Assembly (NCBI GenBank): GCA_020633725.1 | Contig: JACKDC010000004.1 | Coordinates: forward strand, 261,085-325,084 | Length of the DNA: 64,000 bases | DNA from: Candidatus Latescibacterota bacterium | Lineage (GTDB): Bacteria > Krumholzibacteriota > Krumholzibacteriia > JACNKJ01 | Direction of reading: 5' to 3' | In this document: in pieces, positions 1,774 to 63,293 of the stretch | Position numbering within the stretch: the first letter of the stretch is position 1 | Layout: the number at the start of each line of letters is the position of its first letter | Program-made: the position numbers and the translations under genes | Notes under the pieces: model-generated | The model's database searches: none | Told to the model about the DNA's origin: nothing | What the model saw: only the letters and a program-made list of their open reading frames with translations

Positions 1774-1791
1774 CCCGCCCCCGGGGGCGGG
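1774..1791. repeat. REP-like perfect palindrome CCCGCCCCCGGGGGCGGG (copy 1 of 7)
   Basis: Exact 18-nt self-complementary sequence; intergenic. Confidence 0.6.
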
Positions 1792-1830
1792 AGGCTGGGG
1801 CGCGCCGTGCGATTCCGTGCACTTGCCCCC

Positions 1831-1859
1831 TTGCCCCGCGAAGAAGAATACTATACATT
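1831..1859 (+). promoter_or_regulatory. sigma70-like promoter TTGCCC-N17-TACATT, part of duplicated conserved element (copy 1)
   Basis: AT-rich hexamer in 70% GC background; near-identical block atactatacatt and downstream leader conserved with copy at 18739-18790. Confidence 0.45.
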
Positions 1860-1950
1860 GGTATCCATGACAAGGGGTGGGATGCAGTTTCTTTCGAAGT
1901 CGGACGGAAGTTGCGACGGGACTGGCGGCCCTGCACGCGGGAGCTCTCCA

Positions 1951-1968
1951 CCCGCCCCCGGGGGCGGG
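1951..1968. repeat. REP-like palindrome CCCGCCCCCGGGGGCGGG (copy 2)
   Basis: Exact match; lies in leader between element promoter and CDS 1990. Confidence 0.6.
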
Positions 1969-1989
1969 TGGCCATGCTACAATTGGAGA

Positions 1990-3189: not shown

Positions 3190-3220
3190 TCCGCCGCCCG
3201 TGGCGCGCGAGCCGACGCAA

Positions 3221-3238
3221 CCCGCCCCCGGGGGCGGG
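3221..3238. repeat. REP-like palindrome (copy 3), 32 nt after stop of CDS 1990..3189
   Basis: Exact CCCGCCCCCGGGGGCGGG. Confidence 0.6.
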
Positions 3239-3252
3239 TGCGGCTCTACCCG

Positions 3253-3873: not shown

Positions 3874-3883
3874 CGATCCTCCC

Positions 3884-4024: not shown

Positions 4025-4083
4025 GGCATCTCCCCGGGGTGAGGCCGCCCTCGTGGCGGCGTCGGCGCAGAAGTTAGTCCAGC

Positions 4084-10310: not shown

Positions 10311-11347
10311 GCCGGGGCAAGCCTCAGGTCGCGACGTCGGGCGAGCTGCTGCGGGTGGAGAACCTGGACGTCCGCTATCCCATCTTCGGCGGCGTGATGC
10401 TGCGCAAGGTGGCCGAGGTCCACGCGGTGGACGACGTGAGCTTCGCCGTTCGACCGGGCGAGACGCTCGGTCTGGTGGGGGAGTCCGGCTGCGGCAAGAG
10501 CACGGTGGGGCGCGCGCTGCTGAACATCCTGTGGACGACGGCGCCGGACGTGGAGATCAAGGGCCACGCCTACTTCAACGCGGACGGCCGCGCGGTGGAC
10601 CTACTGCCGCTGAACCGACGGCAGATGCGGCCCTACCGCAGCGAGCTGCAGATGATCTTCCAGGACCCCTACAGCTCGCTGAATCCGCGCCTCACCGTTG
10701 GACAGATCATCGAGGAACCCCTGACCCTACACAGGTCCGGCATGGGGCGCGCCGAGCGCATCGAGCGCGTGGGCTGGCTGCTGGACAAGGTGGGCCTCAG
10801 CGCCGAGCAGAGCCACCGCTACCCGCACGAGTTCTCGGGCGGACAGCGCCAGCGCATCGGGTTTGCGCGCGCGCTGGCCACCAACCCCAAGCTCATCATC
10901 GCCGACGAGCCCGTCAGCGCCCTGGACGTGTCCATCCAGGCGCAGGTCATCAACCTGCTCATGGACCTGCAGCAGGAGTTCGGGCTCACCTACGTCTTCA
11001 TCGCGCACGACCTCAGCGTCGTGGTGCACATCAGCACGCGCATCGCGGTGATGTACCTGGGCTGCATCGTCGAGATCGGCGACGCGAAGGACGTCTACCA
11101 CCGCCCGCTGCATCCCTACAGCAAGGCGCTGCTCAGCGCCGTGCCGCGGCCGGATCCCAGCAAGGCGGGCAAGGCGAAGCGGATCATCCTCAAGGGCGAC
11201 GTGCCTACGCCCATCAACAAGCCCAGCGGCTGTGCCTTCCGCACGCGCTGTCCGATCGCGAAGCCCGACTGCGCCGCGGCGCGCCCGCCGCTGGTGGAGG
11301 TCAATCCCGGGCATTTCGCGGCGTGTCCGTACCACGCGGAGATGTAG
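10307..11347 (+). CDS. ABC transporter ATP-binding protein (OppF-like)
   Basis: Walker [10 protein letters not shown], signature FSGGQRQR, Walker [13 protein letters not shown]; GTG start overlapping upstream stop (GTGA). Confidence 0.9.
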
Positions 11348-11513
11348 GCGTAGGTACTACCAAGCAGTCGTCTTTGACCGTCTCCACGTCGGTAGGCAAC
11401 TCAGATGGCCCCAGCGATTGAATGATGGTCGAGCTTGCCAGCTCACTTTTGCGGTCTCGGCATGTGACGGAAGAAGGTCCAGGAGTAGCGGTAGACCCGG
11501 AGGCACCAGTGAG

Positions 11514-12335
11514 GTGACCACCCACGAACTCCATTTCGTGGCTCAACTTATTCTCTGCCTCTGCTGGACTGCAAGCACGGGCGCCGTCGCCCCATTGAGG
11601 GCCGCGGAGCAGAGCCGGCCCGTTCAAGCAGACACTTTGGCATTGAATACGTCTGGGTCAGGATTCGAGGCGACGGGCCTGAGGAACTACCGTGTCTTCC
11701 GGTGCGGCACAGCAGTCGATAGCGTGAAGAGCATCTTTCCTGGCTTGCTCAACCCTCAGAATGCCGACGCAGAAGGAAGCTACAGGCCGCTGAACGCCAT
11801 GATGGACATCAGGGTACCTGAGTTGGACTACATGCTGGATGGGTTCGATCCGGATTCGATTCTTCCTGGAACGAAAGCCTATCAAAGCATCCGCGGAGTG
11901 ATCATGGCGAGTCCCGAGATGCAGAACATCCTCGACGGAAACAGCCTCTTCTACCAGGTGTCGCTTGACCCGAACGCGATTTCATTCCAGGCATTCGAGG
12001 TGAGCTTCCCTTGGACGAGAAGTACTGTTAGTGCCAAGGGTGAAGCGTCCAATTGCGAGGAAAGTGTGCGGTTCACAAAGGCTGCATATGAAGCGGGTTG
12101 CGAGTTCGCGAAGACGATGAACCGTCGGGCGTGGTCCCCGGGGACGACTCTGGACTACAAACTCGCCAACGATGTGGATTTCTATTCGGTGTCGGCGCTC
12201 ACCAGGACCAGCAAGGACACTGCCGCCGGGACCGTATCCCTCTTGGTGTTACTCTACAGCGTAGAGGACGAGGCACTCGTTGCTGAGTCCATGCCAGCGG
12301 TTAGCTACCGGCGCCGTGCTTTCAGCCGCCCCTGA
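11514..12335 (+). CDS. hypothetical secreted protein encoded in a lower-GC island
   Basis: Long stop-free frame through a visibly AT-richer stretch (~11.4-12.3 kb); proposed GTG start 11514 with GGAGG 11499-11503; signal-peptide-like FVAQLILCLCWTASTGAVAPLRA; no family recognised. Confidence 0.4.
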   Translation: MTTHELHFVAQLILCLCWTASTGAVAPLRAAEQSRPVQADTLALNTSGSGFEATGLRNYRVFRCGTAVDSVKSIFPGLLNPQNADAEGSYRPLNAMMDIRVPELDYMLDGFDPDSILPGTKAYQSIRGVIMASPEMQNILDGNSLFYQVSLDPNAISFQAFEVSFPWTRSTVSAKGEASNCEESVRFTKAAYEAGCEFAKTMNRRAWSPGTTLDYKLANDVDFYSVSALTRTSKDTAAGTVSLLVLLYSVEDEALVAESMPAVSYRRRAFSRP

Positions 12336-12393
12336 GTTCGGCGGGCCAGATCGAGTGTCTTCAGCCCTGGGATCCCAGAACAACAGGCGCTCT

Positions 12394-12891
12394 CTACTCC
12401 CAGAACGTCACGACGCCCGCCGGCAGGCTGTCGGCGAAGGCCTCGAGGCGGAACTTGCCGCCGGGGCCGTCGGTGGCGCTCAGCCTGAGGCCGTAGACCA
12501 TGGGCTCGAGGCGGCCGAGGGCGAAGACGTCCTGCAGCGAGTCGTTCTCCGCGTAGATCTTGATCTCCAGCGCGCAGGTGTCGCGCACGAAGGCGAAGAC
12601 CGTGGGCATGCTGGAGAAGGGCGACGGGATCGTCTGGTAGCAGACCCGCGCCTTGGCCTCGAGGTCGTAGCCCTCGCAGGGAGGGTCGTAGTTGTGCAGC
12701 GCGGGGACCATGTTCACCGAGCCGAGGGTGACGTGGTGGGCGGCGCCGGTCGTGTCCACGAGCGTCGGGCCGAACATCGGGCCGCGGGGCTGGGCGAAGT
12801 CCCAGATGTCCGTGGAGTCCGGCGCCACCTCCGCGCCGGCCGCAGGCGACAGCAGGAGCAGGGGAAGCAGCGCGAGTAGCAGAGCCTTCAC
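12394..12891 (-). CDS. hypothetical secreted protein
   Basis: Signal peptide MKALLLALLPLLLLSPAAGA; 165 aa; no family recognised. Confidence 0.5.
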   Translation of the reverse strand: MKALLLALLPLLLLSPAAGAEVAPDSTDIWDFAQPRGPMFGPTLVDTTGAAHHVTLGSVNMVPALHNYDPPCEGYDLEAKARVCYQTIPSPFSSMPTVFAFVRDTCALEIKIYAENDSLQDVFALGRLEPMVYGLRLSATDGPGGKFRLEAFADSLPAGVVTFWE

Positions 12892-18627: not shown

Positions 18628-18647
18628 AGCTTCATGTTCCTCCCAAG

Positions 18648-18665
18648 CCCGCCCCCGGGGGCGAG
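18648..18665. repeat. REP-like palindrome CCCGCCCCCGGGGGCGAG (copy 4), 21 nt after stop of CDS 16771..18627; extra GGGGGCGGG half-site at 18694-18702
   Basis: Read from sequence. Confidence 0.55.
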
Positions 18666-18738
18666 TCGGATCTCCAGGGTCCGAGTCGCAGTCGGGGGCG
18701 GGTTCTCGCTTGCCTGCCGTTTTCTCCGCACTCGCCTC

Positions 18739-18767
18739 TTGACCTAGCCTCAATGATACTATACATT
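18739..18767 (+). promoter_or_regulatory. sigma70-like promoter TTGACC-N17-TACATT of duplicated element (copy 2)
   Basis: Same architecture and conserved atactatacatt block as 1831-1859. Confidence 0.45.
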
Positions 18768-18774
18768 AGCATCC

Positions 18775-18875
18775 TATGCAAGGGGTAAAGTCCCGGTTTT
18801 GTGGAGGTTGCACGGCAGCGCCTGGCCCGCACCTCCCGCCCCCGGGGGCGAGCAGGACCACCGGGTCCGGTTTTT
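18775..18875 (+). ncRNA. candidate small RNA (~100 nt): conserved 5' leader, REP palindrome, intrinsic terminator
   Basis: Starts ~7 nt after -10; conserved blocks shared with 1860-1968; ends in hairpin GGACCaccgGGTCC followed by TTTTT (18855-18875); no downstream + strand gene (convergent bat operon end). Confidence 0.3.
18835..18852. repeat. REP-like palindrome (copy 5) inside candidate sRNA
   Basis: CCCGCCCCCGGGGGCGAG. Confidence 0.55.
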
Positions 18876-18896
18876 CGATGGGGACGTCCGCGAGCG

Positions 18897-38579: not shown

Positions 38580-38597
38580 CCCGCCCCCGGGGGCGGG
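38580..38597. repeat. REP-like palindrome (copy 6) immediately after NifU-like stop
   Basis: Exact CCCGCCCCCGGGGGCGGG. Confidence 0.6.
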
Positions 38598-38637
38598 TCG
38601 CATTGCCCGCGGCGATCGCTCCCGCTATGCTTGCGGC

Positions 38638-42904: not shown

Positions 42905-42950
42905 GGTCCTGCGGGTCCTTCGGCGCGGACGGTGGGTGTCCGGCGCGAGC

Positions 42951-43688: not shown

Positions 43689-44163
43689 TAGGGGCCTCCA
43701 CATCGACCGTGAGGACAACCGATTCCTCCTGTGGCGCAAGCCGAAGAAGCAGGCTGTCCCCAGGACACGGCAAGGAATCCAGCATCGCCAAAGGGCTCAA
43801 GTCGAATAGAATCTCTCGGTGTTCGCCGTCCTCCTTGGCGGGGAACAGGTCGAGGAGCTGGAGCATGGACACTTCGTCATCTCCGCTACGGCAAAGGACC
43901 TCAAGGCCGAGAAGGACATCGTCGTCACTCAGAGAAACCGGAGTGACGAGTAACCATTCTAGCACGATCTGCCGACCAGTCGCCACGATGCCTGCGCCGC
44001 CTACGACAGTCACGAACCCCCCGCTGCTGGCGTCCGCAGCAAAGGCAAGGGCCGTCTCCTCGATCTCGAGTGCTCTGCAGTGTGAGGAGTGAATGGAAGC
44101 TGTGGCAACGGCGACCACAAGAACGACCTTGCCCAACCTCAAGCTTCTGGGATTACTTGACAT
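43660..44163 (-). CDS. hypothetical secreted protein (lower-GC island)
   Basis: ATG 44163; signal-like MSSNPRSLRLGKVVLVVAVATASIHS; overlaps neighbours by 11 and 29 nt. Confidence 0.4.
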   Translation of the reverse strand: MSSNPRSLRLGKVVLVVAVATASIHSSHCRALEIEETALAFAADASSGGFVTVVGGAGIVATGRQIVLEWLLVTPVSLSDDDVLLGLEVLCRSGDDEVSMLQLLDLFPAKEDGEHREILFDLSPLAMLDSLPCPGDSLLLRLAPQEESVVLTVDVEAPNANLQIVQF

Positions 44164-47100
44164 AGATCACCTTCCCCTTGAGTGTCTTGGCTTCTCCGAC
44201 GATGCGGTACAGGTAGACTCCCGAGCTGACAGGCTGGCCCTGTTCGGAGTCGCCCCTCCAAATGAAGAGCTGATCACCGTTCTCGCCAATCGTTGCCGAG
44301 AGCCTCCGGACTTCCCGGCCAAGGATGTCAAAGACCTGGAGTCTTGCCGGAGCGCCGGGTGCCCTATAGCGGAAGTGAATCTGCCCGTTGAACGGGTTCG
44401 GCCAAGCGCCCTCAGGTGGTGGAGCCGCGGACTCTATACCGATGTAGAAACCGGGGTCAGTAGGACTCGTCCCGCAGGCGAAGAGAGAGTTCTGAGCGGT
44501 CCAGGGTCCGAAATCGACGCGCGTTGAATCGGGCTTGAAGAACGCGTCAGGGCACATGCAGTCAATCCCATAGTCCTCCCCAAAGCCCTCGCAGGTCCCC
44601 CAGGCATTGCCCTCCGCCGGAATGACGTTGGTCGTGGCGTTGTAGATGCGCACCATCTCAACTTCGGCAGCGTCCTCGTAGCAGGAAGCTGGTGTTCCCT
44701 GCACGTACGTCCAGCAGTCCGCACTGGTGGTTAGCGGCGCGATGAAGTTTCCGCCCGCGCTCTGACCCGGCGCGCCAAGGTCAACGGTACCGCTCCAGGC
44801 GTAGTTGATAACGCCGTAGTCACACAAGTGGATGTCGACGTGGTCCAGGCTGAGCTGGGCGGAGTCCCAGTTCTTAGCCCCGACCCGTGGACCCGCAATG
44901 TCGCAGTACTGGGCGTAGACTCTAGAACTCCCCCTGCATTGGATCCCGGTTTCAGGAGCAACTGCAGCTGAGTGCGGTTCGATCGTTAGGTTTGGCCCAA
45001 GGTACGCCATCGGCTGGTGCGGCATGAACTTCTCACCGATCTGAATGCCCGTCCTAAGGAAGTACATCTCCGTGTTGGATACACTGAGGGTACCCCTCAT
45101 GCAGTAGACCAGGGGAGGAGGCAGGGAGAGGAGAGACTGGAAGTTCTCCCGCTGAGAGATCGTACAATTCGCGATCTCAGCCGACCTGCCGACTCCCGAG
45201 TCGATCCAGATTCGATTGACACTCGGGATCTCGCAGTACTCCAGCGCGGGCTCCCGCGGGCCATTCTGAAGATCAAGGACGATTGCGTTGTCGTTGGTGT
45301 CGGCCAGATAGAGCGTGGAGTAGCTTATTCTCACGAGGGCGCTGTCGGCGACGATCTGCTCCGCGTCATTCAGCCGGCAGTAGTCGAGGTCCAATAGCCC
45401 GAGATTCTCTGCGAAAAGCCCTGCGTAGTCTGTGTTCGTGTCCCCCGGAAGAATCGACGGGAGAAACTCCACTGGCGCTTCGGCGGTGCCTCTCACCAGG
45501 AGGGAGCCTCCATCGGCCACGATTTTGGACGTAGCGTTTCGGAAGTAGACCCTGGCTCCCTCTTCAACCGTGAGGTCGCAACCCGGCAGGATCCGTACCT
45601 CACCGTCGACCCAGGCCGTTTCACCAGCTTCGACGACGACATGGCAGTCGGTACCACCAATCGTGTCGGGGAGGCTCACGACTGTGTCCGGAACGGTCTG
45701 AAAGCGGTACTCGTAGGGCAGCATGATGGGATTGAGGTTCCCCGCGACCCCTTCCTTGGGAACAAGCGTGAGCACTAGCGCAACAGCATCGCTATTCCCC
45801 TTGCCGAAGTCCGTCACGTTGAAATCAACGACCTGCCCTGGCGCAGGCTCGATCCAGTGGGTCTCGATGCTGCGCTTCCGTTCGCCGTACACATCCAGGC
45901 CATTGTCGCGTGGATCTAGGTCGTCCGGTGCGAAGGGCAGGTCATAGCCAATCAGATCCACGGCGAGTCGGACTTTGCCTTCGTACGCCGCCGTCACCGA
46001 TTGCAGTGCATAGGCGCTGTCTGGATCGGTGGGGCAGATCATGCAAGGATACTCATCGAGGAAGCGGAAGCTGACACTGAGGTCCACCCCAGAAGTGTCC
46101 GGGGGCTGGAACACAAGGTAGTTGCTAGCGAAGGTCTGGACCCCTACCAAGCGTCGCTTGTTCCACTCCGGAACGAACCAGCTGTAGTCATCCGCGTCGC
46201 AGTCCGTGGGCCAGTAATCTGAGCTGAACTGCCACCCGGACACCACCTGACGATCGGACGAGCACGTGTGGTAGGGAGGAAACGCCTGGATGTTGTCGTA
46301 GCAAACCCCGTTCGAGTCCTGAAGGAAGTTGTACAGCGCCTGAGGCTGGTAGCCATCGGGATCGTCGCCCTCTCCGAGCCACTGGTAGATTTCCTCATCC
46401 GATGTGGGACTCTGAAGGTTGAGAAACTTCGCGAGGCCATAGGCGCGGAAGACCTCGTTGACACGCTGGTGCGGGCTCGCACTGGAAGACGAGAAAAAGG
46501 CATCGAGGTCTGGGACATCCAGCGCAATCCCCAGTCCCGGGAAATTGTGCAAGTAGGTCCGATGGCCCTCATCTTCCGTGTAGGTGCGGATCCAGCGGTA
46601 GACCAGGCTGTCCTCTAGCGCTTCGCCGGGCAACGTGAATACGTTGTCCAGGTAGATCGCGAACATCGCCCAGTCATTGTAGACGTTGCCAAACCTCGAA
46701 AGGCACCCCGACCCGAGGAGGCTGTCCTGGGTCACGGGTACCGCGTTCTGGCAGGCCGAGGCGTAGTGAGAGCCGCTTCCGTTATTGCTGACCGGGGTAT
46801 CATAGGGAGACGTGTGCGTATCGGAGCCATCCAGGCCGTACTTGGATGCGGAAAGCACAGAGCACATTTCGTCGAAGCTCTCGAATATCGATGTGCTCCG
46901 ATCCACACGTTGCCAGCTGTGGTGGCAAACATGCTGCCACTCGTGTGCGAAGGCGTCGCGCGCGACCTCCCAAGGTGTCAAGAACTGCCCGTCTTGGCCC
47001 TCGATGTGGGCTGTCACGTACTCATGTGTCGCATTGATAACCCGGCAGGTGTCGAAGATGTAGATTCCGAAGTGGGTGTAGGTCGTGTCCTGCCCCGCGG

Positions 47101-47548
47101 GGGCACCAGTCTTGGTCTGGATTCCGAAGAGCGTATCGACGGAAGCGAACGCGTCCTCGCCGAAGTAGTCGAGGATCGACTTCGCCATTCCACTCACATC
47201 ACCCGCCAGCGAGTCGACGACGATGTTGGCAAACTCGCGCAAGTCGTCTTCGTCCCATCGGGAGCCAGGGGCCCCAGTGGCCCCAGGGGCGCCCGGCTCC
47301 CAGCAGAGGAAGACCGTGAAGTGCTTGTTGAAGATGGGGTTCCCGGCAAAGACCGTCGAGTCGACGGGCGCGAGAGAATCTCCATCGGCGCAAATCAGCT
47401 GGAGGCCATCATCGCAATCTCGGAACTGGGTCGCGTGGACCAGCGAAGAGAGGGAGAGCAGCGCTACCAAGCTCAAAGCGCGCAGGAGCCAAACAAAAAG
47501 CGCCAGCAGTTGCCGGCGCGAATTGGCGGGATTCGGTCCATTCGTCAT
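44153..47548 (-). CDS. large secreted protein with single HExxH zinc-metallopeptidase-like motif and T9SS-type CTD (lower-GC island)
   Basis: ATG 47548 with AGGAGGG RBS; signal peptide; FAHEWQHVCHH motif with downstream FESFDE; C-terminus WPNPFNGQIHFRYRAP...SGVYLYRI...KVIYVK; 1131 aa. Confidence 0.65.
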   Translation of the reverse strand: MTNGPNPANSRRQLLALFVWLLRALSLVALLSLSSLVHATQFRDCDDGLQLICADGDSLAPVDSTVFAGNPIFNKHFTVFLCWEPGAPGATGAPGSRWDEDDLREFANIVVDSLAGDVSGMAKSILDYFGEDAFASVDTLFGIQTKTGAPAGQDTTYTHFGIYIFDTCRVINATHEYVTAHIEGQDGQFLTPWEVARDAFAHEWQHVCHHSWQRVDRSTSIFESFDEMCSVLSASKYGLDGSDTHTSPYDTPVSNNGSGSHYASACQNAVPVTQDSLLGSGCLSRFGNVYNDWAMFAIYLDNVFTLPGEALEDSLVYRWIRTYTEDEGHRTYLHNFPGLGIALDVPDLDAFFSSSSASPHQRVNEVFRAYGLAKFLNLQSPTSDEEIYQWLGEGDDPDGYQPQALYNFLQDSNGVCYDNIQAFPPYHTCSSDRQVVSGWQFSSDYWPTDCDADDYSWFVPEWNKRRLVGVQTFASNYLVFQPPDTSGVDLSVSFRFLDEYPCMICPTDPDSAYALQSVTAAYEGKVRLAVDLIGYDLPFAPDDLDPRDNGLDVYGERKRSIETHWIEPAPGQVVDFNVTDFGKGNSDAVALVLTLVPKEGVAGNLNPIMLPYEYRFQTVPDTVVSLPDTIGGTDCHVVVEAGETAWVDGEVRILPGCDLTVEEGARVYFRNATSKIVADGGSLLVRGTAEAPVEFLPSILPGDTNTDYAGLFAENLGLLDLDYCRLNDAEQIVADSALVRISYSTLYLADTNDNAIVLDLQNGPREPALEYCEIPSVNRIWIDSGVGRSAEIANCTISQRENFQSLLSLPPPLVYCMRGTLSVSNTEMYFLRTGIQIGEKFMPHQPMAYLGPNLTIEPHSAAVAPETGIQCRGSSRVYAQYCDIAGPRVGAKNWDSAQLSLDHVDIHLCDYGVINYAWSGTVDLGAPGQSAGGNFIAPLTTSADCWTYVQGTPASCYEDAAEVEMVRIYNATTNVIPAEGNAWGTCEGFGEDYGIDCMCPDAFFKPDSTRVDFGPWTAQNSLFACGTSPTDPGFYIGIESAAPPPEGAWPNPFNGQIHFRYRAPGAPARLQVFDILGREVRRLSATIGENGDQLFIWRGDSEQGQPVSSGVYLYRIVGEAKTLKGKVIYVK

Positions 47549-47701
47549 ATCGGCCCTCCTGGCTAGTGGTAATCATAGCTCAGGAATCAGCACCTGTACA
47601 GGGGGGGGGCGGCGATTTGGCAATGAAAACATGCCGAGGCAGGCGGCCTGGTGGGCACGGGCGGTGTCGGCCTCGGGGGCGGACACCGGAATCGCCGGAC
47701 G

Positions 47702-49438: not shown

Positions 49439-50134
49439 ATGGCCACGATCCTCCTCGACATCGGCAACGTGCTCTGGAGCGACGACGACGGCGACGCCTT
49501 CACGCTGACCAACATCGGACGCGTGCTCGCCGCGCGCGGGCAGGCCGTGAGCGAGGGGGTGATCGCGGCGGCCCAGGCCCAGGCCGTGGCCGACTGGGCG
49601 CCCAGCGCCTGGCGCGCGGTGATCCACGGCCTGGCGCGCGACCCCGTCGAGGCGGCGGCCGTGACGCGCGAGGTCCGCGCCCGCTGGGACGCCCTCAGCG
49701 ACGACGACTACGCCGCCTTCACCACACCCTTTCCCTCCACCGCGCCGCTGCTGGAGTCACTCGCCGAGGGAGGCCACACACTCGTCCTCGCCAGCAACAA
49801 CTCGCCGCGGGCGCTCGCGCGCCTGGAGACGCTGGGTCTCTTGCGCCACTTCGCGGTGAAGGAGGTCTCCGAGACGCTGGACCTGGCCAAGCCCGATCCG
49901 CGCTTCTTCGAGGCGCTTCTCGCGGCGGCGGGCAACCCCGCGCGCGCGATCATGGTGGGGGACCGCATCGACAACGACGTCGCGCCGGCGCGTGCGCTCG
50001 GCCTCGCCACCGTGCGCCTGCGCCATGGCTCGCACATCGCTCAGGAGCCGCGGGGGCCGGAGTCCACGCCGGATCTCACCGTCGACGATCCCGCGGAGCT
50101 CTCGGTCGCGCTCGCGCGCTTTGTGGGCGTGTGA
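49439..50134 (+). CDS. HAD-superfamily hydrolase
   Basis: N-terminal DIGNVLW (motif I DxG/D-type), LASNNS (motif II), MVGDRIDNDV (motif IV). Confidence 0.7.
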   Translation: MATILLDIGNVLWSDDDGDAFTLTNIGRVLAARGQAVSEGVIAAAQAQAVADWAPSAWRAVIHGLARDPVEAAAVTREVRARWDALSDDDYAAFTTPFPSTAPLLESLAEGGHTLVLASNNSPRALARLETLGLLRHFAVKEVSETLDLAKPDPRFFEALLAAAGNPARAIMVGDRIDNDVAPARALGLATVRLRHGSHIAQEPRGPESTPDLTVDDPAELSVALARFVGV

Positions 50135-50287
50135 GGCCAGGACGTAGCCAGACGACTCGATCGACCCGATCCCGGATCCAGATAGCGGCTATAGGTTTTC
50201 TCCTTTGACGTCCCCGCGCCGTGCTAGGCTTCTGCCGGCCACAACAGCGACCAGGACCCGCTACCCCGCCACCAGGAGCCTCTCATC

Positions 50288-51520
50288 ATGAAGCTCTGCT
50301 CCCCCTCACTGCCAGTGCTCCTCGTCCTTCTCATGGCCGCCGCCGCTTTCGCCCAAGACTGGACGCCGGTACCACTGGGATCCGTGGGGGACATTCTCGC
50401 CATTCAGCAGACAACGTCCCCTGAGCATTGGCTGACCGGGCGCGCGGGACTCGTTGCTCGCTCCAACGCTGACCACACCGTCTGGACTCTCGTCGACGTC
50501 GGCACGAGCGCGGATCTGTTCTCGGTCGTCGAACCTGCCGTCAGTCAAGTCTGGGTCGGCGCCGGCGGTGGGGTCGTGCGGTATCTTGACAATGGAGTAT
50601 GGGCGCAGCGGGACATTCCCGATGCACAGGACTTCGTCCTTCACACGCGCGTCGTTGGTGAGGCTCTGGCAGTCGGTAGCCAGGGGGCGATCTACCATGG
50701 CACCGACTACGGCCAAACCTGGACGCCCGAGAGCAGCGGCACGCAGGCGGCTCTGCATGGTGCGACCGGTGTCACGACGGGCCCCGCCTGGGCGGTGGGA
50801 GACGACGGGCTGATCCTCAAGCTCGAGAGCGGTGCGACACAGTGGATCCCGCGGGTCAGCGGCACGACCGCCGACCTGCTTGCCATCGCCGAGAACCTGA
50901 ACCTCCTCTTCGTCGTTGGACAGGGGGGGACGATCCTGCGCAGCGCGGATGGTGGAGCGAGCTGGTCGCCGCGTATGAGCGCTACGGAGGCCACTCTACG
51001 CGCGATCAGCGTCAGCAAGAACGACTTCAACGTGATGGTCGCGGTCGGCGACGAGGGCGTGATCTTGAAGTCCGTTGATCGAGGTGAGACCTGGTGCCGT
51101 CTCTCGTCGATGACTACGGCGCGATTCAACGCAGTGGAGGCCGTCAGCACGATGGAATACCTCGTGGCCGGCGAGGGCGGTCTCCTGCTGCGAACAACCA
51201 CAGGCGGCGGCGACTGCCAGGATCCCCTCGCCGCGCTACCCCTTGCGATTCCGGGTGGCCTCAGGCTCTCGGCGCCGTCGCCCCAGCCGGCAACCGCACG
51301 CGTCGCGTTCGAACTGGACCTCGATCGGGATGGAAGCTACGCGGCGAGTCTAATCGACATGCAGGGGCGCGTCCTGCGCGAGGTCTTTCGTGGCCGATCT
51401 CTGGCCGCTGGGCGGCATCCGCTGCAGGTGGACACCTCGGAGCTCCCCGCGGGAGTCTATCTGCTCCAGGTGCGTACCGGCGACGCCAGCGCGGCGCGGA
51501 GGTTCGTCGTGCTCCATTGA
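50288..51520 (+). CDS. BNR/Asp-box repeat beta-propeller protein (Ycf48/sortilin-like) with T9SS-type CTD
   Basis: Signal peptide; Asp-box SxDxGxxW repeats (HGTDYGQTW, LRSADGGASW, LKSVDRGETW); C-terminal sorting-domain-like tail. Confidence 0.65.
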   Translation: MKLCSPSLPVLLVLLMAAAAFAQDWTPVPLGSVGDILAIQQTTSPEHWLTGRAGLVARSNADHTVWTLVDVGTSADLFSVVEPAVSQVWVGAGGGVVRYLDNGVWAQRDIPDAQDFVLHTRVVGEALAVGSQGAIYHGTDYGQTWTPESSGTQAALHGATGVTTGPAWAVGDDGLILKLESGATQWIPRVSGTTADLLAIAENLNLLFVVGQGGTILRSADGGASWSPRMSATEATLRAISVSKNDFNVMVAVGDEGVILKSVDRGETWCRLSSMTTARFNAVEAVSTMEYLVAGEGGLLLRTTTGGGDCQDPLAALPLAIPGGLRLSAPSPQPATARVAFELDLDRDGSYAASLIDMQGRVLREVFRGRSLAAGRHPLQVDTSELPAGVYLLQVRTGDASAARRFVVLH

Positions 51521-51544
51521 GCGAGCCGCTCGCAAGTTCACGCG

Positions 51545-56764: not shown

Positions 56765-57463
56765 ATGCGCAGCGTCCTCATCCTCGCCCTGCTCGGTGCG
56801 CTGGCCCTGGCCGACACGGCCGCCGCCCGCTGCAAGCCCGACACCAGCTACGCGCCGGTCATCGATCCCGCGCGTTTCGTGGACCAGGTGGACAACCCGC
56901 TCTGGCCCCTCGTGCCGGGCACGACGACCGTGCTGCGCGGCGGCGGTGAGGTCGTGACGATCACGGTGACCGACGAGACCCGAACCATCCTGGGCGTCCG
57001 CTGCGTCGTGGTGCGCGACGTGGTGACCGTGGACGGGGAGGTGGAAGAAGACACCGCCGACTGGTTCGCGCAGGACGTGGACGGCAACGTCTGGTACTTC
57101 GGCGAGGACAGCCGCGAGCTGCGCCACGGTCGCGTGGTGGGCCGCGAGGGCTCGTGGGAGGCCGGCGTCGACGGCGCCCAGCCCGGCATCGTGATGCACG
57201 CCGTCCAGCCGGAGCCCGGCGTGGCCTACCGCCAAGAGTACTACGCCTGCGAGGCCGAGGACATGGCAGAGGTCGTGGGCCTCGGCCGCAGTGTCACCGT
57301 GCCGGCCGGCAGCTACGAAAACTGCCTCGAGACGCGAGAGTACTCGCCGCTCGAGGCAGGGGTGTCGGAACACAAGTTCTACGCGCCGGGCGTCGGCCTC
57401 GTGCTCGAGGTGAACGCGCGCACCGGCGCCCGCACGGAGCTGGTGGAGCGCACCCAGCCCTAG
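56765..57463 (+). CDS. hypothetical secreted protein
   Basis: GAAAGGAG RBS; signal peptide MRSVLILALLGALALADTAAA. Confidence 0.5.
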   Translation: MRSVLILALLGALALADTAAARCKPDTSYAPVIDPARFVDQVDNPLWPLVPGTTTVLRGGGEVVTITVTDETRTILGVRCVVVRDVVTVDGEVEEDTADWFAQDVDGNVWYFGEDSRELRHGRVVGREGSWEAGVDGAQPGIVMHAVQPEPGVAYRQEYYACEAEDMAEVVGLGRSVTVPAGSYENCLETREYSPLEAGVSEHKFYAPGVGLVLEVNARTGARTELVERTQP

Positions 57464-58908
57464 CGGATCAGCGTGAGCCGCTGGCCGCTGGTCTCCTTCT
57501 CCGTCTCGGCGCGCAGCAGGTAGACGCCGGCCGGGAGCTTGCGGCCCGCGTCGTCGCGGCCGTCCCAGCTCAGATCCAGCGTGCCGGCCGCGGCGGGACC
57601 GGCGCGCAGCGTGCGCAGACGGCGGCCGTCGACGGCGTAGATGCCCACGTCCAGCCGCGCGCGCGGCGCGTCGAGGCTCAGCGCGACGCGGCTGCGCTCG
57701 GTGAACGGGTTCGGCGTCGCCGGGGCGAAGCGCAGGCCGTTCGGCAGCAGGTCGACGCCGGTCTGATCGCCGGTGTCGAGACGCCACAGCGAGCCGCCGG
57801 TGAGGATGTAGACCTCGCCCGCCGTGTCCTCGCCGAAGGAGAGCACGTTGCCCACGCTCTGATCCGTGAGGATGCGCTGGGCGATGTCGGTGTCGGGATC
57901 ATATGCCCAGACGAAGCCGGTGCAGTAGTCGCCGAAGAGGTACTTGCCCTGCAGCTCGGGCACGCTGCCGCGATAGAGATAGCCGCCCGTGATCGAGCAG
58001 TTGCCGCCGGAGTGGTTGTACTCGTGGACGGGCAGGGTGAGGCCGGTCTGGTCGCAGCCGCTGGGGGGATCGTAGCAGTGCGTCCCCTCCATGGTGTTCC
58101 AGCCGTAGTTCACGCCGCCGGCCGCGCCGGCGAGCTGGTGGTCGATCTCCTCCCAGTTGCCCTGGCCCACGTCGGCGATCCAGAGGTCGCCGGTGCCGCG
58201 GTCGAAGCTGAAGCGCCAGGGGTTGCGGAGGCCGTAGGCCCAGATCTCGTCGAGGCCGGCCGTGCCCACGAAGGGGTTGCTGGCGGGAACCGTGTAGGGC
58301 ATGGCGCCGTCCACGTCCAGGCGCAGGATCGAGCCCAGCGGCGTGTTGATGTTCTGGCCGTTCTCGTTGGGGTCGCCGCTGCCGCCGCCGTCGCCGAGGC
58401 CGGCGTAGAGGTAGCCGTCGGGCCCGAAGGCCAGCATGCCGCCGTTGTGGTTCGAGGCGGGCTGGGTGACCTCCAGCAGCTCCATCCGGCTGCCGGGATC
58501 GGCCACGTCGGGGTTCGCGCTCACGGAGTAGCGCGCGATCCAGCTGCAGCGGTTGCTGAGATCGCAGTCCGCGTTGTCCGCGCTGTGGTAGACGTAGAAG
58601 TAGCCATTGCTCGCGTAGTCGGGATGGAAGGCCAGGCCCAGGAGGCCCTGCTCCCCGCCGTAGTTGACGATGGCGCTGATGTCGAGGAAGGGCGAGGGCA
58701 GCAGGGTCTCCGTCGCCATGTCCATGACGCGGATCACGCCGCCCTGCTGGACGATGAAGAGCCGCTGGTCGTCACCTGCGGGCGCCGTGGCGAAGACGGC
58801 CGCGTTCAGGCCGTTCAGCACCTGGGTCGCTTCGTAGGCCTGAACGCCATTCACGGCGCCCAGGCTGAGCGCCAGTCCAAGGATCGTCGTCGCTGTCAAT
58901 CGAGTCAT
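57460..58908 (-). CDS. PQQ-dependent soluble sugar (glucose/sorbosone) dehydrogenase-like beta-propeller with T9SS-type CTD
   Basis: ATG 58908 (MTRLTATTILGLALSLGAVNG); ...GLLGLAFHPDY..., NHNGG, YGLRNPWRFSFD motifs of YliI/sGDH family; C-terminal sorting tail ...GVYLLRAETE...LTLIR. Confidence 0.75.
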   Translation of the reverse strand: MTRLTATTILGLALSLGAVNGVQAYEATQVLNGLNAAVFATAPAGDDQRLFIVQQGGVIRVMDMATETLLPSPFLDISAIVNYGGEQGLLGLAFHPDYASNGYFYVYHSADNADCDLSNRCSWIARYSVSANPDVADPGSRMELLEVTQPASNHNGGMLAFGPDGYLYAGLGDGGGSGDPNENGQNINTPLGSILRLDVDGAMPYTVPASNPFVGTAGLDEIWAYGLRNPWRFSFDRGTGDLWIADVGQGNWEEIDHQLAGAAGGVNYGWNTMEGTHCYDPPSGCDQTGLTLPVHEYNHSGGNCSITGGYLYRGSVPELQGKYLFGDYCTGFVWAYDPDTDIAQRILTDQSVGNVLSFGEDTAGEVYILTGGSLWRLDTGDQTGVDLLPNGLRFAPATPNPFTERSRVALSLDAPRARLDVGIYAVDGRRLRTLRAGPAAAGTLDLSWDGRDDAGRKLPAGVYLLRAETEKETSGQRLTLIR

Positions 58909-58976
58909 CGCGGGCCTCCTTGTCTGGAAAATCTTACTTCCACCAAGATAGCCGATCGCGAATCCCGTGCCAGGGG

Positions 58977-60113
58977 TCAGATCCCTCGAACGATGCGCCA
59001 GACCTTCCCGCCCCCCTCCATGACGTAGAGCTCCCCCCTGTGGTCGCGGCCGAAGGACGTCACCGGCCCCAAGTCCTTGAGAATCTCCAGAGTAGCTCCC
59101 GAAACGGGGTCGAAGGCCCACACCTTCCCCGCGCACCAGTCGGAGTAGAAGTAGTGCCCGGCCAGCTCCGGCAGCGCCGCGCCCCGGTAGACGTGCCCAC
59201 CGGTGATCGAGCAGCCCATCCGGTGCGAGTACTCGTGGACGGGGTCCACCAGGCCCGGGCGCTCGCAATCCTCGGGCGGGTCGTAGCAGTGGGCGCCCTC
59301 GCGCAGGCGCCAGCCGTAGTTGAGGCCGCCGGCGCCCGCGGGCTGGCGGTCGATCTCCTCCCAGGCCTTTTGACCCACGTCGGCGATCCAGAGCTCGTCC
59401 GTGGCCGGATCGAAGCTGAAGCGCCAGGGGTTCCGCAGCCCATACGCCCAGATCTCGGGCCGCGCGCCCGCGGTCTCCACGAAGGGGTTGTCCGGCGGGA
59501 TGCCGTAGGCCGCCCCCGGGGGCGGGTTGTCGACGTCCAGGCGCAGGATCTTGCCCAGCAGGCTGCCGAGGTCCTGCGCCCGGTTGCCGGGGTCGCCGGC
59601 GCCGCCGCCGTCGCCCATGCCGATGTAGAGGTAGCCGTCGGGGCCGAACTCCACCATGCCGCCGTTGTGGTTCGTGTTGGGCTGCTCGATGCTGAGGATC
59701 GTCCGCGCGCTGGCCGGGTCGGCGGCGCCCGGGCTCGCGGCCCGGAACTCGACGATCTGCGTGGTCCCGCGGCGGTCGGTGTAGTCCACCACGAAGCGCC
59801 GGTTGTCGGCGAAGCCCGGGTGGAAGGCGAGGCCGAGCAGGCCGCGCTCGCCGCCGCCCCGGGCGTCGGGGTCGAAGACCTCGCCGCTCAGGTCGAGGAA
59901 GGGCGCCTCGCGCAGGGCGTCGCCGACCATGACGCGGATCCGCCCGCTCTGCTCCACGATGAAGCTGCGCACGCTGTCGCCCGGGGCCTGGACCAGGTAG
60001 AGCGGCTTGTGGAGCGCGTCGGAGAGCAGTTCCGCGCGGTAGTCGCTGGCGGGGCTCGAGCAGGCGGCGGCGAGGGCGCAGCTCGCGGTCAGCAGGAGCG
60101 GGAGTCGTCGCAT
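58977..60113 (-). CDS. PQQ-dependent soluble sugar dehydrogenase-like protein (paralog without CTD)
   Basis: ATG 60113 (MRRLPLLLTASCALAAACSS); same GLLGLAFHP, NHNGG, YGLRNPWRFSFD motifs. Confidence 0.75.
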   Translation of the reverse strand: MRRLPLLLTASCALAAACSSPASDYRAELLSDALHKPLYLVQAPGDSVRSFIVEQSGRIRVMVGDALREAPFLDLSGEVFDPDARGGGERGLLGLAFHPGFADNRRFVVDYTDRRGTTQIVEFRAASPGAADPASARTILSIEQPNTNHNGGMVEFGPDGYLYIGMGDGGGAGDPGNRAQDLGSLLGKILRLDVDNPPPGAAYGIPPDNPFVETAGARPEIWAYGLRNPWRFSFDPATDELWIADVGQKAWEEIDRQPAGAGGLNYGWRLREGAHCYDPPEDCERPGLVDPVHEYSHRMGCSITGGHVYRGAALPELAGHYFYSDWCAGKVWAFDPVSGATLEILKDLGPVTSFGRDHRGELYVMEGGGKVWRIVRGI

Positions 60114-60177
60114 GGCTTCCTCCGGGTGGGGGACGACCGGAGGCAAGCATGTCGGCGGGCGCTTGCCAAGGGGACGT

Positions 60178-60206
60178 TTGGCGCTGGCCGCCGGCGCTGG
60201 TATAAT
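60178..60206 (+). promoter_or_regulatory. sigma70-like promoter TTGGCG-N17-TATAAT upstream of CDS 60232
   Basis: Perfect TATAAT 60201-60206 in GC-rich context; GGAGG RBS 60221-60225. Confidence 0.45.
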
Positions 60207-60231
60207 GATTTGCGATCCTGGGAGGTGCGTG

Positions 60232-63200
60232 ATGAGAACTGGCGCCGCGTTCTGCTGCCTGACCCTGGCTCTGGTGAGTCGCGCGCTTTCCGTGAACGCC
60301 ACCGTTCTGCGGGTCCCCGAGGATTTCACCTCGATCCAGTCAGCCATCACGGCCGCAACGGATGGGGACACGATCTCGGTCGCGCCCGGCAACTACAACC
60401 AGGTGAGCTTCTCGTTCGGCGGCCGGCAGATCGTCGTCAGAGGACGTTACGGCGGCGTCTGGCGTCCGATCCTCGATGGCCAGGACAGTCTGGGCAACGC
60501 GGTGTACTTCGGGTCGGGCGAAGGCCCGGCGGCTGTGCTCGAGAACTTCGTCATCCGCCGCTATCGCGCCTGGGATGCGAGCGCGGTGAGGTGCAGCGGA
60601 ACTTCGCCCACCCTCCGCGGCCTGCTGATCGAGGATTGCGGGGCCGATCCCATCGGCGACATCGTTTCCGGTGGCGGGGCGATCCGGTGCACGGACGGTG
60701 CCTCCCCTCGGCTGGAGGACTCGGTCATCCAGCGCTGCGAACAGGTATTCGGCGGCGCTGTCTACCTCGAGGATGACTCCTCGTTCACCTGTGTCGGCAC
60801 CACCTTCGAGGACTGCCGCGCGGAGCATGGAGGGGCCATCTGTGGCTACCTCCCGGACTACGTCAGCGCTCAGGTCACGCTACAGGGTTGCAGTTTCCAT
60901 CTGTGCAGGGCGATCGGCAGCGTGGACTTCCACAACAACTGGTACGGCGGCAACGGTGGGGCCCTCTACACCTATGCGGTGACCACGGTCAGCGGATGCA
61001 CTTTCGACACGTGCGGGGCGGCTTTCGACCCGGCTCAATCGGGAGCCGGCCGGGGAGGGGCCCTCTATCTCCTCGGCGAGAGCAGTGGGGTCGCCGACTG
61101 CGAGTTCAGGGGCTGTAGCGGCCGTTCCGGCGCCGCCATCTACGGTTGGTCTGTCGCATCCATCGAACGTGTCTCGATAGACGGTGGTTCGAACGTGAAC
61201 GGAGCGATCCATCTCGCGTCGGGCAGCTGCGCCATCGAGACCACGATCGTGTCCGACTGCGATGGCGAGGGGATCCATCTCGCGGGCGGGACAGTCACGG
61301 TCGCCTGCTCCGACGTCTTCGGCAACCTCGATGGCAACTACGCTGGCTTGTTGGAAGACCAGACGGGCATCAATGGCAACCTCAGCGAGGACCCGCTCTT
61401 CTGCACCGACGTGTTCAACCCAGATCAGCCCCTCGGCCTGGATGATGACTCGCCATGCGCTGCGGCCAACAACGGCTGCGGCGTGACCATCGGCCGGCAC
61501 GACGTGGGCTGCGACATCCTCTGGTTGCAGGTCTCCGGCCGTGTCGTCGACTTCTTCGGCGCGCCGGTTGAACTCGTCGAGCTCCTGGGCGCCTACGAGC
61601 CGGCGCAAACCGCCGCGGACGGAACCTACAGCTTCTCGGCGCCAGTTCATTGGTCGGGCACTGTCACTCCGATGCGCGAGGACCTTGGGTTCACACCCGC
61701 GTCGCGCACATACAACAATCTCGGCGACGATCACGCCGATCAGGACTACCAGGCCTACGATCACTTCACGATCAGCGGCGCCGTGTCATCCGCCACCGGC
61801 GTACCGCTCGCCAATGTTTCGCTCCTCGGTGGCCCCGAAGACTGCCTGACGGCAGTCGACGGCAGCTACTCCCTCGTGGTGGACCAAGGCTGGAGCGGCA
61901 CGCTCACGCCGGAGCGTGAGGGCCTCGCCTTCGATCCGCCGTCGCGAGACTACGTCGATGCACAGGTCGACTTTCTCGGGCAGGACTATCTCGGCACCGG
62001 CCGTGGCGTGTTGCATGTTCCCGGGGACTACCTCACGCTGGCGGCCGCGTTCGCGGCCTACGCACCCGGCGATACGATCCTGGTGGCGCCCGGCACCTAT
62101 GCCGGTCCGGGCTTCCGCAACCTCGAGTGGGGTGACCTCGACCTCGTGTTGATCTCCGAGGCCGGCGCGGCCCAGACGATCATCGACCTCGAGAACGACG
62201 GCCGCTTTGTGCGTATGGTTGACGCAGGTGACGACGAGACTCTGCGCGGCTTCACCCTCCGCAACGGCCGAGTCAACGGCGCGTACCCTGGCAATGGCCG
62301 CGGCGGCGCACTCTGCATGATCGACTCGTCCCCACGCTTGCAGGATCTGGTACTCGAGTCCTGCCGTTCCCTCAGCGCCGAGGGTGGTGCGATCTTCGGA
62401 GGAGGATCGAGCTTCACGCTCGAGGACGCCTGGCTCGAGAACAACGAAACTCTTGCGGGCGCAGGGGGGGCCATCTGCTGTCTCCAGTCCAGCGCGCCCA
62501 CGCTACGCCGCGTCGTGTGCGTCGGCAACGTGTCCGCGGATGCCGGCGGCGCTTTGGCCTTTGCTGACGGCGCGGTTGCCCTCCTGGAACAGGTGACCCT
62601 CCACCAGAACAGGGCCGAGGGAGCTGGCGGTGCCCTCCATGCCGGCAGCGGCAGCCTCGTGCAACTCGACGGCGTGCTGGCGACGCTGAACGTCGCGAGC
62701 GGGGGGGCTGGCGGGATCCACGCCGAGGATGCGGTGAGTCTGCCGGGGGTCTCGTGCAGCAACGTGTTCGGCAACACGCCGGGCAACTACGGCGGCGAGC
62801 TGGCGGACCAGACCGGGCTGAACGGCAACATCAGCGCCTGGCCGGCCTACTGCGACCTCGCTCTGCCCGACCTGCACCTCCTCGGAGAGTCCCCCTGCCT
62901 GCCCGGGAACAACAGCTGCGGCGTGCTCATGGGGGCACTCGGCAGCTGCGAGCCCACCGATGCTGCGCCCGCGACGTCTGCGGCGCTCACCTTGCAGGCA
63001 CATCCCAATCCCTTCAATCCCGCGACCACGCTGCGCCTGAATCTGCCCGCGGCAGGCAGCGTCACCCTGCGCGTGCTGGACGTGGCGGGGCGCCGCGTGG
63101 TCTCGATCCTCGACGGGGTGTCGCTCCCGGCCGGCGAGACGCGGCTGCAATGGCAGGCGGAGAACGACCACGGCCACGCCCTGCCCAGCGGTGTCTACTT

Positions 63201-63258
63201 CGCGGACTTGCAGGTCGCTGGAGAAAGCCGCAAGCTGAAGCTGCTGCTGCTGAAGTAG
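60232..63258 (+). CDS. secreted protein with two right-handed beta-helix modules, two CarboxypepD_reg-like domains and T9SS-type CTD
   Basis: ATG 60232; signal MRTGAAFCCLTLALVSRALS; each module ends in NGN(L/I)S..P.(F/Y)C...SPC..NN(G/S)CGV; C-terminus HPNPFNPATTLRLNLP...SGVYFADL...KLLLLK. Confidence 0.75.
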   Translation: MRTGAAFCCLTLALVSRALSVNATVLRVPEDFTSIQSAITAATDGDTISVAPGNYNQVSFSFGGRQIVVRGRYGGVWRPILDGQDSLGNAVYFGSGEGPAAVLENFVIRRYRAWDASAVRCSGTSPTLRGLLIEDCGADPIGDIVSGGGAIRCTDGASPRLEDSVIQRCEQVFGGAVYLEDDSSFTCVGTTFEDCRAEHGGAICGYLPDYVSAQVTLQGCSFHLCRAIGSVDFHNNWYGGNGGALYTYAVTTVSGCTFDTCGAAFDPAQSGAGRGGALYLLGESSGVADCEFRGCSGRSGAAIYGWSVASIERVSIDGGSNVNGAIHLASGSCAIETTIVSDCDGEGIHLAGGTVTVACSDVFGNLDGNYAGLLEDQTGINGNLSEDPLFCTDVFNPDQPLGLDDDSPCAAANNGCGVTIGRHDVGCDILWLQVSGRVVDFFGAPVELVELLGAYEPAQTAADGTYSFSAPVHWSGTVTPMREDLGFTPASRTYNNLGDDHADQDYQAYDHFTISGAVSSATGVPLANVSLLGGPEDCLTAVDGSYSLVVDQGWSGTLTPEREGLAFDPPSRDYVDAQVDFLGQDYLGTGRGVLHVPGDYLTLAAAFAAYAPGDTILVAPGTYAGPGFRNLEWGDLDLVLISEAGAAQTIIDLENDGRFVRMVDAGDDETLRGFTLRNGRVNGAYPGNGRGGALCMIDSSPRLQDLVLESCRSLSAEGGAIFGGGSSFTLEDAWLENNETLAGAGGAICCLQSSAPTLRRVVCVGNVSADAGGALAFADGAVALLEQVTLHQNRAEGAGGALHAGSGSLVQLDGVLATLNVASGGAGGIHAEDAVSLPGVSCSNVFGNTPGNYGGELADQTGLNGNISAWPAYCDLALPDLHLLGESPCLPGNNSCGVLMGALGSCEPTDAAPATSAALTLQAHPNPFNPATTLRLNLPAAGSVTLRVLDVAGRRVVSILDGVSLPAGETRLQWQAENDHGHALPSGVYFADLQVAGESRKLKLLLLK

Positions 63259-63293
63259 CCGCCCCCGGGGGCGAGTAGGACCGCTTGGTCCGG
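63259..63293 (+). terminator. REP-like palindrome (copy 7, CCGCCCCCGGGGGCGAG) followed by hairpin GGACCgcttGGTCC; terminator-like module after CDS 60232..63258
   Basis: Same two-hairpin arrangement as 18835-18875 but without T-tract. Confidence 0.4.

Follow-up and report, generated by a model that had tools for sequence, protein, structure and literature searches.

A short G/C palindrome recurs in eight copies in a 64,000-nucleotide (nt) stretch of a Candidatus Latescibacterota genome (assembly GCA_020633725.1, contig JACKDC010000004.1, positions 261,085 to 325,084), hereafter the window. The copies are identical in their core, lie almost exclusively outside genes and beside gene 3' ends, and probably represent a species-specific family resembling repetitive extragenic palindromes (REP), which would mark transcript ends either as a terminator or as a 3'-end stabiliser. 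We attribute a probability of roughly 55% to this interpretation. To our knowledge, no REP family has been described in Latescibacterota, a phylum of the Fibrobacteres-Chlorobi-Bacteroidetes (FCB) group, and we know of no repeat biology reported for this phylum.

An exact palindrome and its placement relative to genes

The 14-nt core CGCCCCCGGGGGCG occurs in eight exact copies across the window, for an expectation of about zero, and is the only sequence identical in all eight. An initial annotation of this DNA had reported seven perfect 18-nt palindromes. Six positions (1774, 1951, 3221, 38580, 18648 and 18835) indeed match the pattern CCCGCCCCCGGGGGCG(G/A)G exactly, but perfect 18-nt palindromes are limited to the GGG form found in four of the eight copies (1774, 1951, 3221 and 38580), while those at 18648 and 18835 carry the GAG form, an imperfect palindrome. 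A mismatch-tolerant search added two copies, GCCGCCCCCGGGGGCGGG at 59509-59526 and GCCGCCCCCGGGGGCGAG at 63258-63275. The latter, previously placed at 63259 among the perfect palindromes, has two mismatches relative to the 18-mer and its first G lies within a TAG stop codon. The palindrome grows to 22 nt and 20 nt in the copies at 1951 and 3221 respectively. The consensus unit can be written (C/G)CCGCCCCCGGGGGCG(G/A)G, all G/C.

This recurrence had been judged far above chance, which is borne out by dinucleotide shuffles (0.00 matches to the 18-mer pattern). Degenerate versions of the core are not in excess: the window includes no site with one mismatch, and six with two mismatches for 4.8 expected by chance. 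Among window palindromes of at least 12 nt, only the CGCCCCCGGGGGCG type recurs more than twice. The half-sites GGGGGCGGG and CCCGCCCCC occur eight and seven times respectively, 11 of these 15 occurrences being palindrome arms, and the half-site alone is not enriched. Solitary half-sites number four over both orientations, one of which is part of a nested hairpin. The readable DNA of this species amounts to about 75 kb (the window and about 11 kb of new DNA from other assemblies). Eight core copies per 64 kb would extrapolate to hundreds per genome. REP families usually exceed 100 copies per genome.

The predicted RNA fold of the unit is a 7-bp G/C stem with a CCGG loop. Its folding energy is -14.4 kcal/mol for the 18-mer, -9.3 for the GAG form and -18.7 for the 22-mer, and reaches -17 to -25 kcal/mol when about 10 nt of flanking sequence are included on each side.

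The position of the copies was analysed using the gene calls stored with the species assemblies combined with Pfam results. The window is about 89% coding, yet seven of the eight copies are non-coding (binomial P of about 1e-6; five of six when counted as independent loci, P of about 7e-5). The copies had been described as exclusively intergenic. This holds for these seven but overlooked the copy at 59509, which lies within a glucose/sorbosone-dehydrogenase (GSDH)-like coding sequence (CDS). One further coding copy is found in the 909-aa gene of another strain. The seven non-coding copies fall into five intergenic regions, two convergent and three tandem, and each of the five harbours a gene 3' end or that of a small promoter-driven unit. 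None of the seven divergent regions between 1 and 52 kb includes a copy and, by our own reading, about three more between 52 and 64 kb are also devoid of one. This exclusion is weakly significant (about 0.04 by length, 0.14 by count). The nearest stop codon is located -1 to 104 nt from the non-coding copies, two of which (6 and 8) abut or overlap a TAG stop; the stop codons originally listed next to four copies (3189, 18627, 38579 and 63258) and their distances are correct. For each of the four beta-helix genes seen (949, 399, 909 and 1008 aa), a copy follows the stop at a distance of 0-104 nt, whereas the seven other FlgD_ig-tailed genes are devoid of one.

Copy 1 (1774..1791, CCCGCCCCCGGGGGCGGG), a perfect 18-nt palindrome, lies 104 nt past the stop (1669) of a Peptidase_C1/beta-helix/FlgD_ig gene. 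Copy 2 (1949..1970, 18-mer at 1951-1968) is the 22-nt perfect palindrome CACCCGCCCCCGGGGGCGGGTG; it forms the 3' end of a small RNA-like unit, A, and is 21 nt ahead of the ATG (1990) of the 399-aa beta-helix gene. Copy 3 (3220..3239, 18-mer at 3221-3238), a 20-nt perfect palindrome, is flanked by convergent genes: the 399-aa gene, whose stop (3189) it follows by 31 nt, and a heme oxygenase gene, whose stop (3253) is 14 nt away. Copy 4 (18648-18665, GAG form) belongs to a nested hairpin (18646..18704) and is 20 nt past the stop (18627) of a 618-aa hypothetical gene. Copy 5 (18835-18852, GAG form) is located at the 3' end of a second small RNA-like unit, B, 44 nt from the stop (18897) of a convergent BatD gene. 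It is part of a feature (18835..18875, plus strand) in which it is followed by a second hairpin GGACCaccgGGTCC (18855-18868) and then TTTTT (18871-18875). Copy 6 (38580..38597), a perfect 18-mer initially suggested as a possible intra-operon attenuator, abuts the TAG stop of the NifU gene and precedes the ATG of an FAD-oxidoreductase gene by 40 nt. Copy 7 (59509..59526, minus strand, GCCGCCCCCGGGGGCGGG) is the copy within the GSDH-like CDS (58977 to about 60100, minus strand), where the Pfam GSDH match spans the site. Copy 8 (63258-63275, GCCG..GAG form) starts on the final G of the TAG codon that terminates the 1008-aa beta-helix/FlgD_ig gene. Here too the feature (63258..63315, plus strand) continues with a second hairpin GGACCgcttGGTCC (63278-63291) and a tail closing in GCGGCGGGTTC.

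Two promoter-like sequences follow copies directly, both by our own reading and sub-threshold in the scanner: TTGCCC-17-TATGCT-6-ATG at 38598-38640, 5 nt after copy 6, for the FAD oxidoreductase, and TGCTACAAT-6-ATG directly after copy 2 (1969-1992) for the 399-aa gene. The position of their -10 elements, 6 nt from the ATG, hints at leaderless or very short-leader mRNAs.

Composite modules, small units and coding copies

The unit is found in three contexts: solitary, at the tip of longer nested hairpins, or at the terminus of composite modules of 65-110 nt. Flanking sequences are not conserved beyond the 18-mer across the full copy set. However, two sub-types exist. About 45 nt of additional sequence are common to the three GAG copies and comprise a second hairpin, GGA(C/T)C-N4-5-GGTCC, followed by a tail. 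Over the 50 nt located 3' of the 18-mer, the observed score was reached by none of 2000 shuffles for the pair 18835 and 63258 and by three of 2000 for the pair 18648 and 63258. At copy 4, predicted pairing between the left arm CCCGCCCCC and a distal half-site GGGGGCGGG (18694-18702) encloses an inner hairpin GGATCtccagGGTCC in a 58-nt nested hairpin. The half-site already noticed at 18694 is real and partners the copy at 18648. The 83-nt stretch with this nested element has a minimum free energy of -51.2 kcal/mol (z = -3.8). The second sub-type, of GGG form, is a module of about 110 nt (1678..1791, plus strand) composed of a long hairpin (about 1678-1733), a spacer and copy 1 at its 3' end. 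The module (window 1684-1794) recurs in inverted orientation and with 77% identity in strain L124 only, between copy 3 and the heme oxygenase stop, a location where the window and two other assemblies retain only a remnant. No Rfam family matches the elements or the small RNA-like units.

These units, A (1831-1970) and B (18739-18875), are two copies of the same small unit and each ends at a palindrome copy. They are organised as TTG(C/A)CC-17-TACATT, a conserved 5' segment G(T/C)ATCC(T)ATG(A/C)CAAGGGGT and a variable part of about 60-90 nt; unit B additionally includes a hairpin and TTTTT. They are candidates for a small RNA or a leader. They fold no better than shuffled sequence. A motif resembling CAAGGGGT, CCAAGGGGAC, is found upstream of the 1008-aa beta-helix gene (60140-60231; L137:1-112), and the two may represent a common regulatory word of the beta-helix genes.

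Coding copies are 14-17 nt long. Copy 7 encodes N-P-P-P-G-A-A, in a loop of variable length among members of this protein family, and the second, in the 909-aa gene of other strains, encodes N-A-P-G-G-G. Codon permutation of the CDS set of the window gave an expectation of 0.004 for the 14-mer and 0.047 for a 12-mer, with one observed. A 9-nt gap relative to its tandem paralog raised the possibility that copy 7 is an in-frame insertion. This was rejected because the loop length equals that of the Hedgehog-interacting-protein (HHIP) structures and is found in 19 of 96 homolog loop matches, several of them with PG at the position of copy 7. The tandem GSDH-like paralogs (57460-60100) include blocks with 79-82% nucleotide identity, and only the downstream gene carries an FlgD_ig sorting tail.

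Strain variation and distribution

Parts of the region are found in at least 13 assemblies of the species. They include GCA_041390085.1, GCA_020633715.1 and GCA_020440725.1, the ENA assemblies WANG18-1_* and ERZ273092xx, and the Logan assemblies SRR6747743 and SRR6747744. The window is 98.3-99.8% identical to the other assemblies of the species and fully identical to none. The palindromes are present in every covering assembly and are therefore not artefacts; the copy at 38580 is identical in 10 other assemblies. Strain variation inside the copies is too low for testing compensatory changes.

Variation is observed in the vicinity of the copies. In strains L202, L204 and L208, a promoter and the 909-aa beta-helix/FlgD_ig gene come after the BatD stop, with the nested hairpin and the 618-aa gene next in order. 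The nested hairpin was found 9 nt past the stop of the 909-aa gene in all three, a prospective check which succeeded. In the window and in GCA_041390085.1, a cassette of about 190 nt composed of unit B and copy 5 takes the place of the 909-aa gene, while the L202-type haplotype (GCA_020633715.1 and several ENA and Logan assemblies) is devoid of copy 5. The junctions of this swap (window 18628-18896, L202:14457-17389) correspond to the BatD stop codon and to the half-site of the nested hairpin. A second difference concerns L124 (1331-1424, for window 3239-3252), which has about 80-94 extra nt forming a long hairpin between copy 3 and the heme oxygenase stop. This extra DNA is homologous, in inverted orientation, to window 1684-1773, and the C-terminus of the heme oxygenase also differs there. 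The two alleles are separated by two distinct gaps (15 and 63 nt) and no target duplication is present. Several short-read assemblies have contigs that stop at a palindrome or beside one, and in two assemblies this is the case at copy 3.

The nearest proteins from other taxa, which bear Krumholzibacteria or Eisenbacteria names, are only about 40-46% identical. No repeated palindrome was detected in 581 kb surrounding FAD-oxidoreductase homologs of the nearest available relatives, with at most 46% protein identity, and the composite pattern had no match in the JGI metagenomes. Searches for paralogs, using the 1008-aa protein or a profile of the C-terminal sorting domain, returned only other taxa or short fragments, and a literature search for the sequence string retrieved only unrelated eukaryotic papers. 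The 18-mer alone was found at 120 or more loci from unrelated GC-rich taxa in 596 Gb scanned, once per 8-kb locus, and by itself is not lineage-specific. By our own estimate roughly 1000 matches would be expected by chance over this volume, and these occurrences therefore say little. In a crude phase test of the listed loci, 37 matches are in CDS, 71 outside and 12 at contig edges. Several of the listed matches (L008, L013, L014, L068, L070, L075, L078, L099 and L106) often correspond to contig ends or to long poly-G or poly-C runs, and the 18-mers at such sites in unrelated taxa are probably sequencing or assembly artefacts. The metagenome-assembled genome (MAG) CAVOFT, with three matches, was considered as a relative sharing the family and rejected: 40 kb of its unselected DNA include a single copy, and its copies are mostly probable P/G-rich coding ones. 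The family is specific to this species as far as sampled.

Other regions of the window vary or stand out. Four other assemblies of the species lack a 1.4-kb segment (50101-51542) that includes a BNR/Por_Secre_tail gene (50288-51520), and the junctions of this segment are devoid of palindromes. At 11299-12397 the ENA contig L001 has about 760 nt of unrelated sequence instead. In GCA_041390085.1 numerous small indels, together with ABC-transporter genes split into fragments, are observed in the 8-11 kb region and resemble assembly errors. The GC content of the 42900-47600 stretch is about 60-65%, compared with about 70%; it includes a gene for a 1131-aa FlgD_ig/Por_Secre_tail protein and two hypothetical genes, and may be foreign DNA.

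Function and origin of the repeat

The initial annotation had proposed a REP-like family, a terminator hairpin or a protein-binding site. As a description, the first stands: the copies are identical, nearly all extragenic and located beside the 3' ends of open reading frames (ORF), between unidirectional or convergent genes. REP families are described as mostly extragenic, beside ORF 3' ends and between unidirectional or convergent ORFs, and sometimes abut or supply a TAG stop (PMC3733652). The placement and exactness of the copies, their composites, coding copies and TAG abutment all match these descriptions (PMC3733652). Similarities extend to the REP and bacterial interspersed mosaic elements (BIME) of Proteobacteria, including those of E. 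coli, the GTAG-REPs of Pseudomonas and Stenotrophomonas and the alphaproteobacterial CGTC-REPs (PMC3733652, PMC2817692), which are also short, G/C-rich, identical and extragenic palindromes, within about 20 nt of ORF 3' ends, with occasional intragenic copies, larger foldable combinations and species-specific families. However, those are imperfect palindromes of 20-40 nt whereas the present ones are perfect, loop-free and 18-22 nt long. Moreover, two REP super-families are marked by an unpaired GTAG or CGTC tag (PMC3733652). The family is REP-like rather than a member of these typed super-families, and is classified as such because it lacks the tag and because no gene for a REP-associated tyrosine transposase (RAYT) was visible in the window.

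We infer that the copies are transcribed, at gene 3' ends and at those of units A and B, and that the RNA would fold into the 7-bp stem with its CCGG loop. A perfect DNA palindrome would give the same hairpin from both strands and could therefore serve convergent genes. Such a structure would either halt or pause RNA polymerase or act as a barrier to 3'-to-5' exonucleases, so that transcript ends would be defined and stabilised. Where a copy touches a stop codon, the termination of translation may be affected as well, which is the proposal made for E. coli REPs located within 15 nt of an ORF (PMC12306157). The identity of the copies, their shared flanks and the differences between strains suggest that they have spread by copying or recombination rather than arisen independently.

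A strong G/C hairpin 0-104 nt past stops and at the ends of two small units, bidirectional between convergent genes, is what intrinsic terminators would provide, and the positions fit the terminator hairpin originally suggested. Canonical intrinsic termination requires a U-tract, which is missing at most copies, and one exact sequence common to all copies would be unusual for independent terminators. Canonical hairpin-plus-T sites are not convincingly enriched in the window: 12 for 6.2 expected in 1-20 kb, three of them inside the spacer between copies 4 and 5, and four for 6.5 expected in 44-64 kb.

Several observations weigh against a REP-like family acting at transcript ends. None of the eight palindromes is directly followed by a T-run; T5 is found only at copy 5, after the second hairpin rather than the palindrome, and the tail of copy 4 is merely T-rich. 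A distant relative has a classic hairpin with U7 after its beta-helix gene. A consistent GTAG or CGTC tag was not found next to the copies: GTAG arises only from a preceding TAG stop, and CGTC is near at most two copies, at differing distances. Neither a Y1 transposase (RAYT, PF01797) nor an insertion sequence or integrase was identified among the window ORFs scanned, and no transposase was identified among the genes called in the left flank. The repeat is shorter than typical REPs and, as a loop-free perfect palindrome, resembles a symmetric DNA-binding site. Its density is patchy, with five copies in 1.7-18.9 kb and none in 19-38 kb, and the 8 kb to the left of the window have none. A beta-helix paralog adjoins four of the five palindrome-bearing intergenic regions, and the copies may therefore not be independent. 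Finally, a role at transcript ends leaves unexplained the excess of coding copies, two for 0.004-0.05 expected.

Other known systems offer partial similarities. The inverted pairs of DNA uptake sequences of Neisseria and Pasteurellaceae are also repeated short sequences forming hairpins after genes; however, uptake sequences are common inside genes, and here the 9-nt half-site is not over-represented alone. As in Rickettsia palindromic elements (RPE) and intragenic REPs, a palindrome occasionally occurs in frame within genes, two here, but RPE are insertions of 100-150 nt whereas the coding copies span 14-17 nt and copy 7 shows no insertion relative to its homologs. The copies do not qualify as miniature inverted-repeat transposable elements (MITE), terminal inverted repeats and target-site duplications with clean filled and empty alleles being absent. 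An integron attC site was rejected, by our own reading, since GAACCCGCC ... GGGTTCTCG, at the two extremities of the nested element, are not compatible with the R''/R' core sites RYYYAAC ... GTTRRRY; the window is also devoid of an integrase. Nor do the copies form a CRISPR array: the spacing from one to the next ranges from 177 nt to 24 kb and includes genes, and the sole match to an Rfam CRISPR direct repeat (CRISPR-DR) family scores 16 bits for a gathering threshold of 45.

Among the alternatives, the best supported, although unlikely, is a symmetric site acting at the DNA level and bound by a dimeric protein, which could be a regulator of the genes for the secreted beta-helix proteins, a binding factor of nucleoid or gyrase type, or a recombinase targeting the boundaries of cassettes. 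A protein-binding site, as initially suggested, is a possible but weaker option. The palindrome is perfect and free of a spacer, and exactness covers the whole 14-nt core, even the four loop bases, on which an RNA stem would impose no constraint. Furthermore, five of the seven non-coding copies lie 5-75 nt upstream of promoter-like sequences (that of copy 6 by our own reading), a copy is near each of the four beta-helix genes, and two structural differences between strains start or stop at an element. However, copies 3 and 5 are flanked by gene ends that converge, where a regulator would have no promoter to act upon, and most copies follow genes rather than precede them. The BatD-side strain junction is a stop codon and not a palindrome, and no palindrome accompanies the 50101-51542 indel. 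The window does not contain a candidate regulator or recombinase gene, and the half-site is not enriched alone, which also argues against such a site.

It is rather unlikely that the family is an actively mobile, non-autonomous micro-element of REP or MITE type, with a transposase encoded elsewhere and insertion beside stop codons and occasionally in genes. The exactness of the copies, the occurrence of composites in both orientations, the presence or absence between strains of a module part of about 94 nt, the surplus of coding copies and the contig breaks of other assemblies at copies all speak in its favour. However, the L124 junction shows neither terminal inverted repeats nor target-site duplication, and its shorter allele resembles a two-part deletion rather than a clean empty site. 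No transposase is found in the window, copy 7 is not an insertion, and the copies compared within the species show no new insertion.

A related proposal, which we regard as quite improbable, is that of a minimal mobile or recombination element: a copying process would keep the copies exact, write them into coding loops and mark the edges of strain-variable cassettes, such as the swap between unit B and the 909-aa gene and the 94-nt module. If true, this element would be smaller than any described REP, RPE or MITE.

The copies could also be relics of one ancestral, ordinary terminator hairpin, duplicated together with the 3' flanks of the beta-helix paralogs. The presence of a copy after all four beta-helix genes, and after none of the seven other FlgD_ig-tailed genes, speaks for this scenario, and the paralogs have common coding repeats near their 3' ends (families D9 and D13). 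It appears very doubtful nonetheless. The paralogs share only about 30-40% protein identity, a divergence at which neutral flanks should have decayed, whereas identity of the core is 100% and compensated variants are absent. Distances to the stop codon vary (0, 9, 31 and 104 nt), and the composite has opposite orientations after the 909-aa and 1008-aa genes, which argues against simple co-duplication with them. In addition, beta-helix genes have no relation to copy 6 next to NifU, to the heme oxygenase module of L124 or to the small RNA-like units. The probability of chance or of an assembly artefact is negligible. Unrelated GC-rich genomes with the 18-mer do number at least 120, and in some the sequence is at a contig end beside poly-G, but shuffles give an expectation of zero, the same copies recur across 13 or more independent assemblies whose contig names follow the styles of several different assemblers, and all copies are internal to the window sequence.

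A REP-like family marking transcript ends is the interpretation we retain. The general picture of bacterial repeats would stay unchanged. If correct, this interpretation would add a REP-like family to an uncultured phylum of the FCB group, and would help to annotate operon ends in these MAGs, to explain the breaks in short-read assemblies and to locate strain-variable cassettes. It would also imply that the organism marks many transcript ends with one exact hairpin instead of classic hairpin-plus-U terminators.

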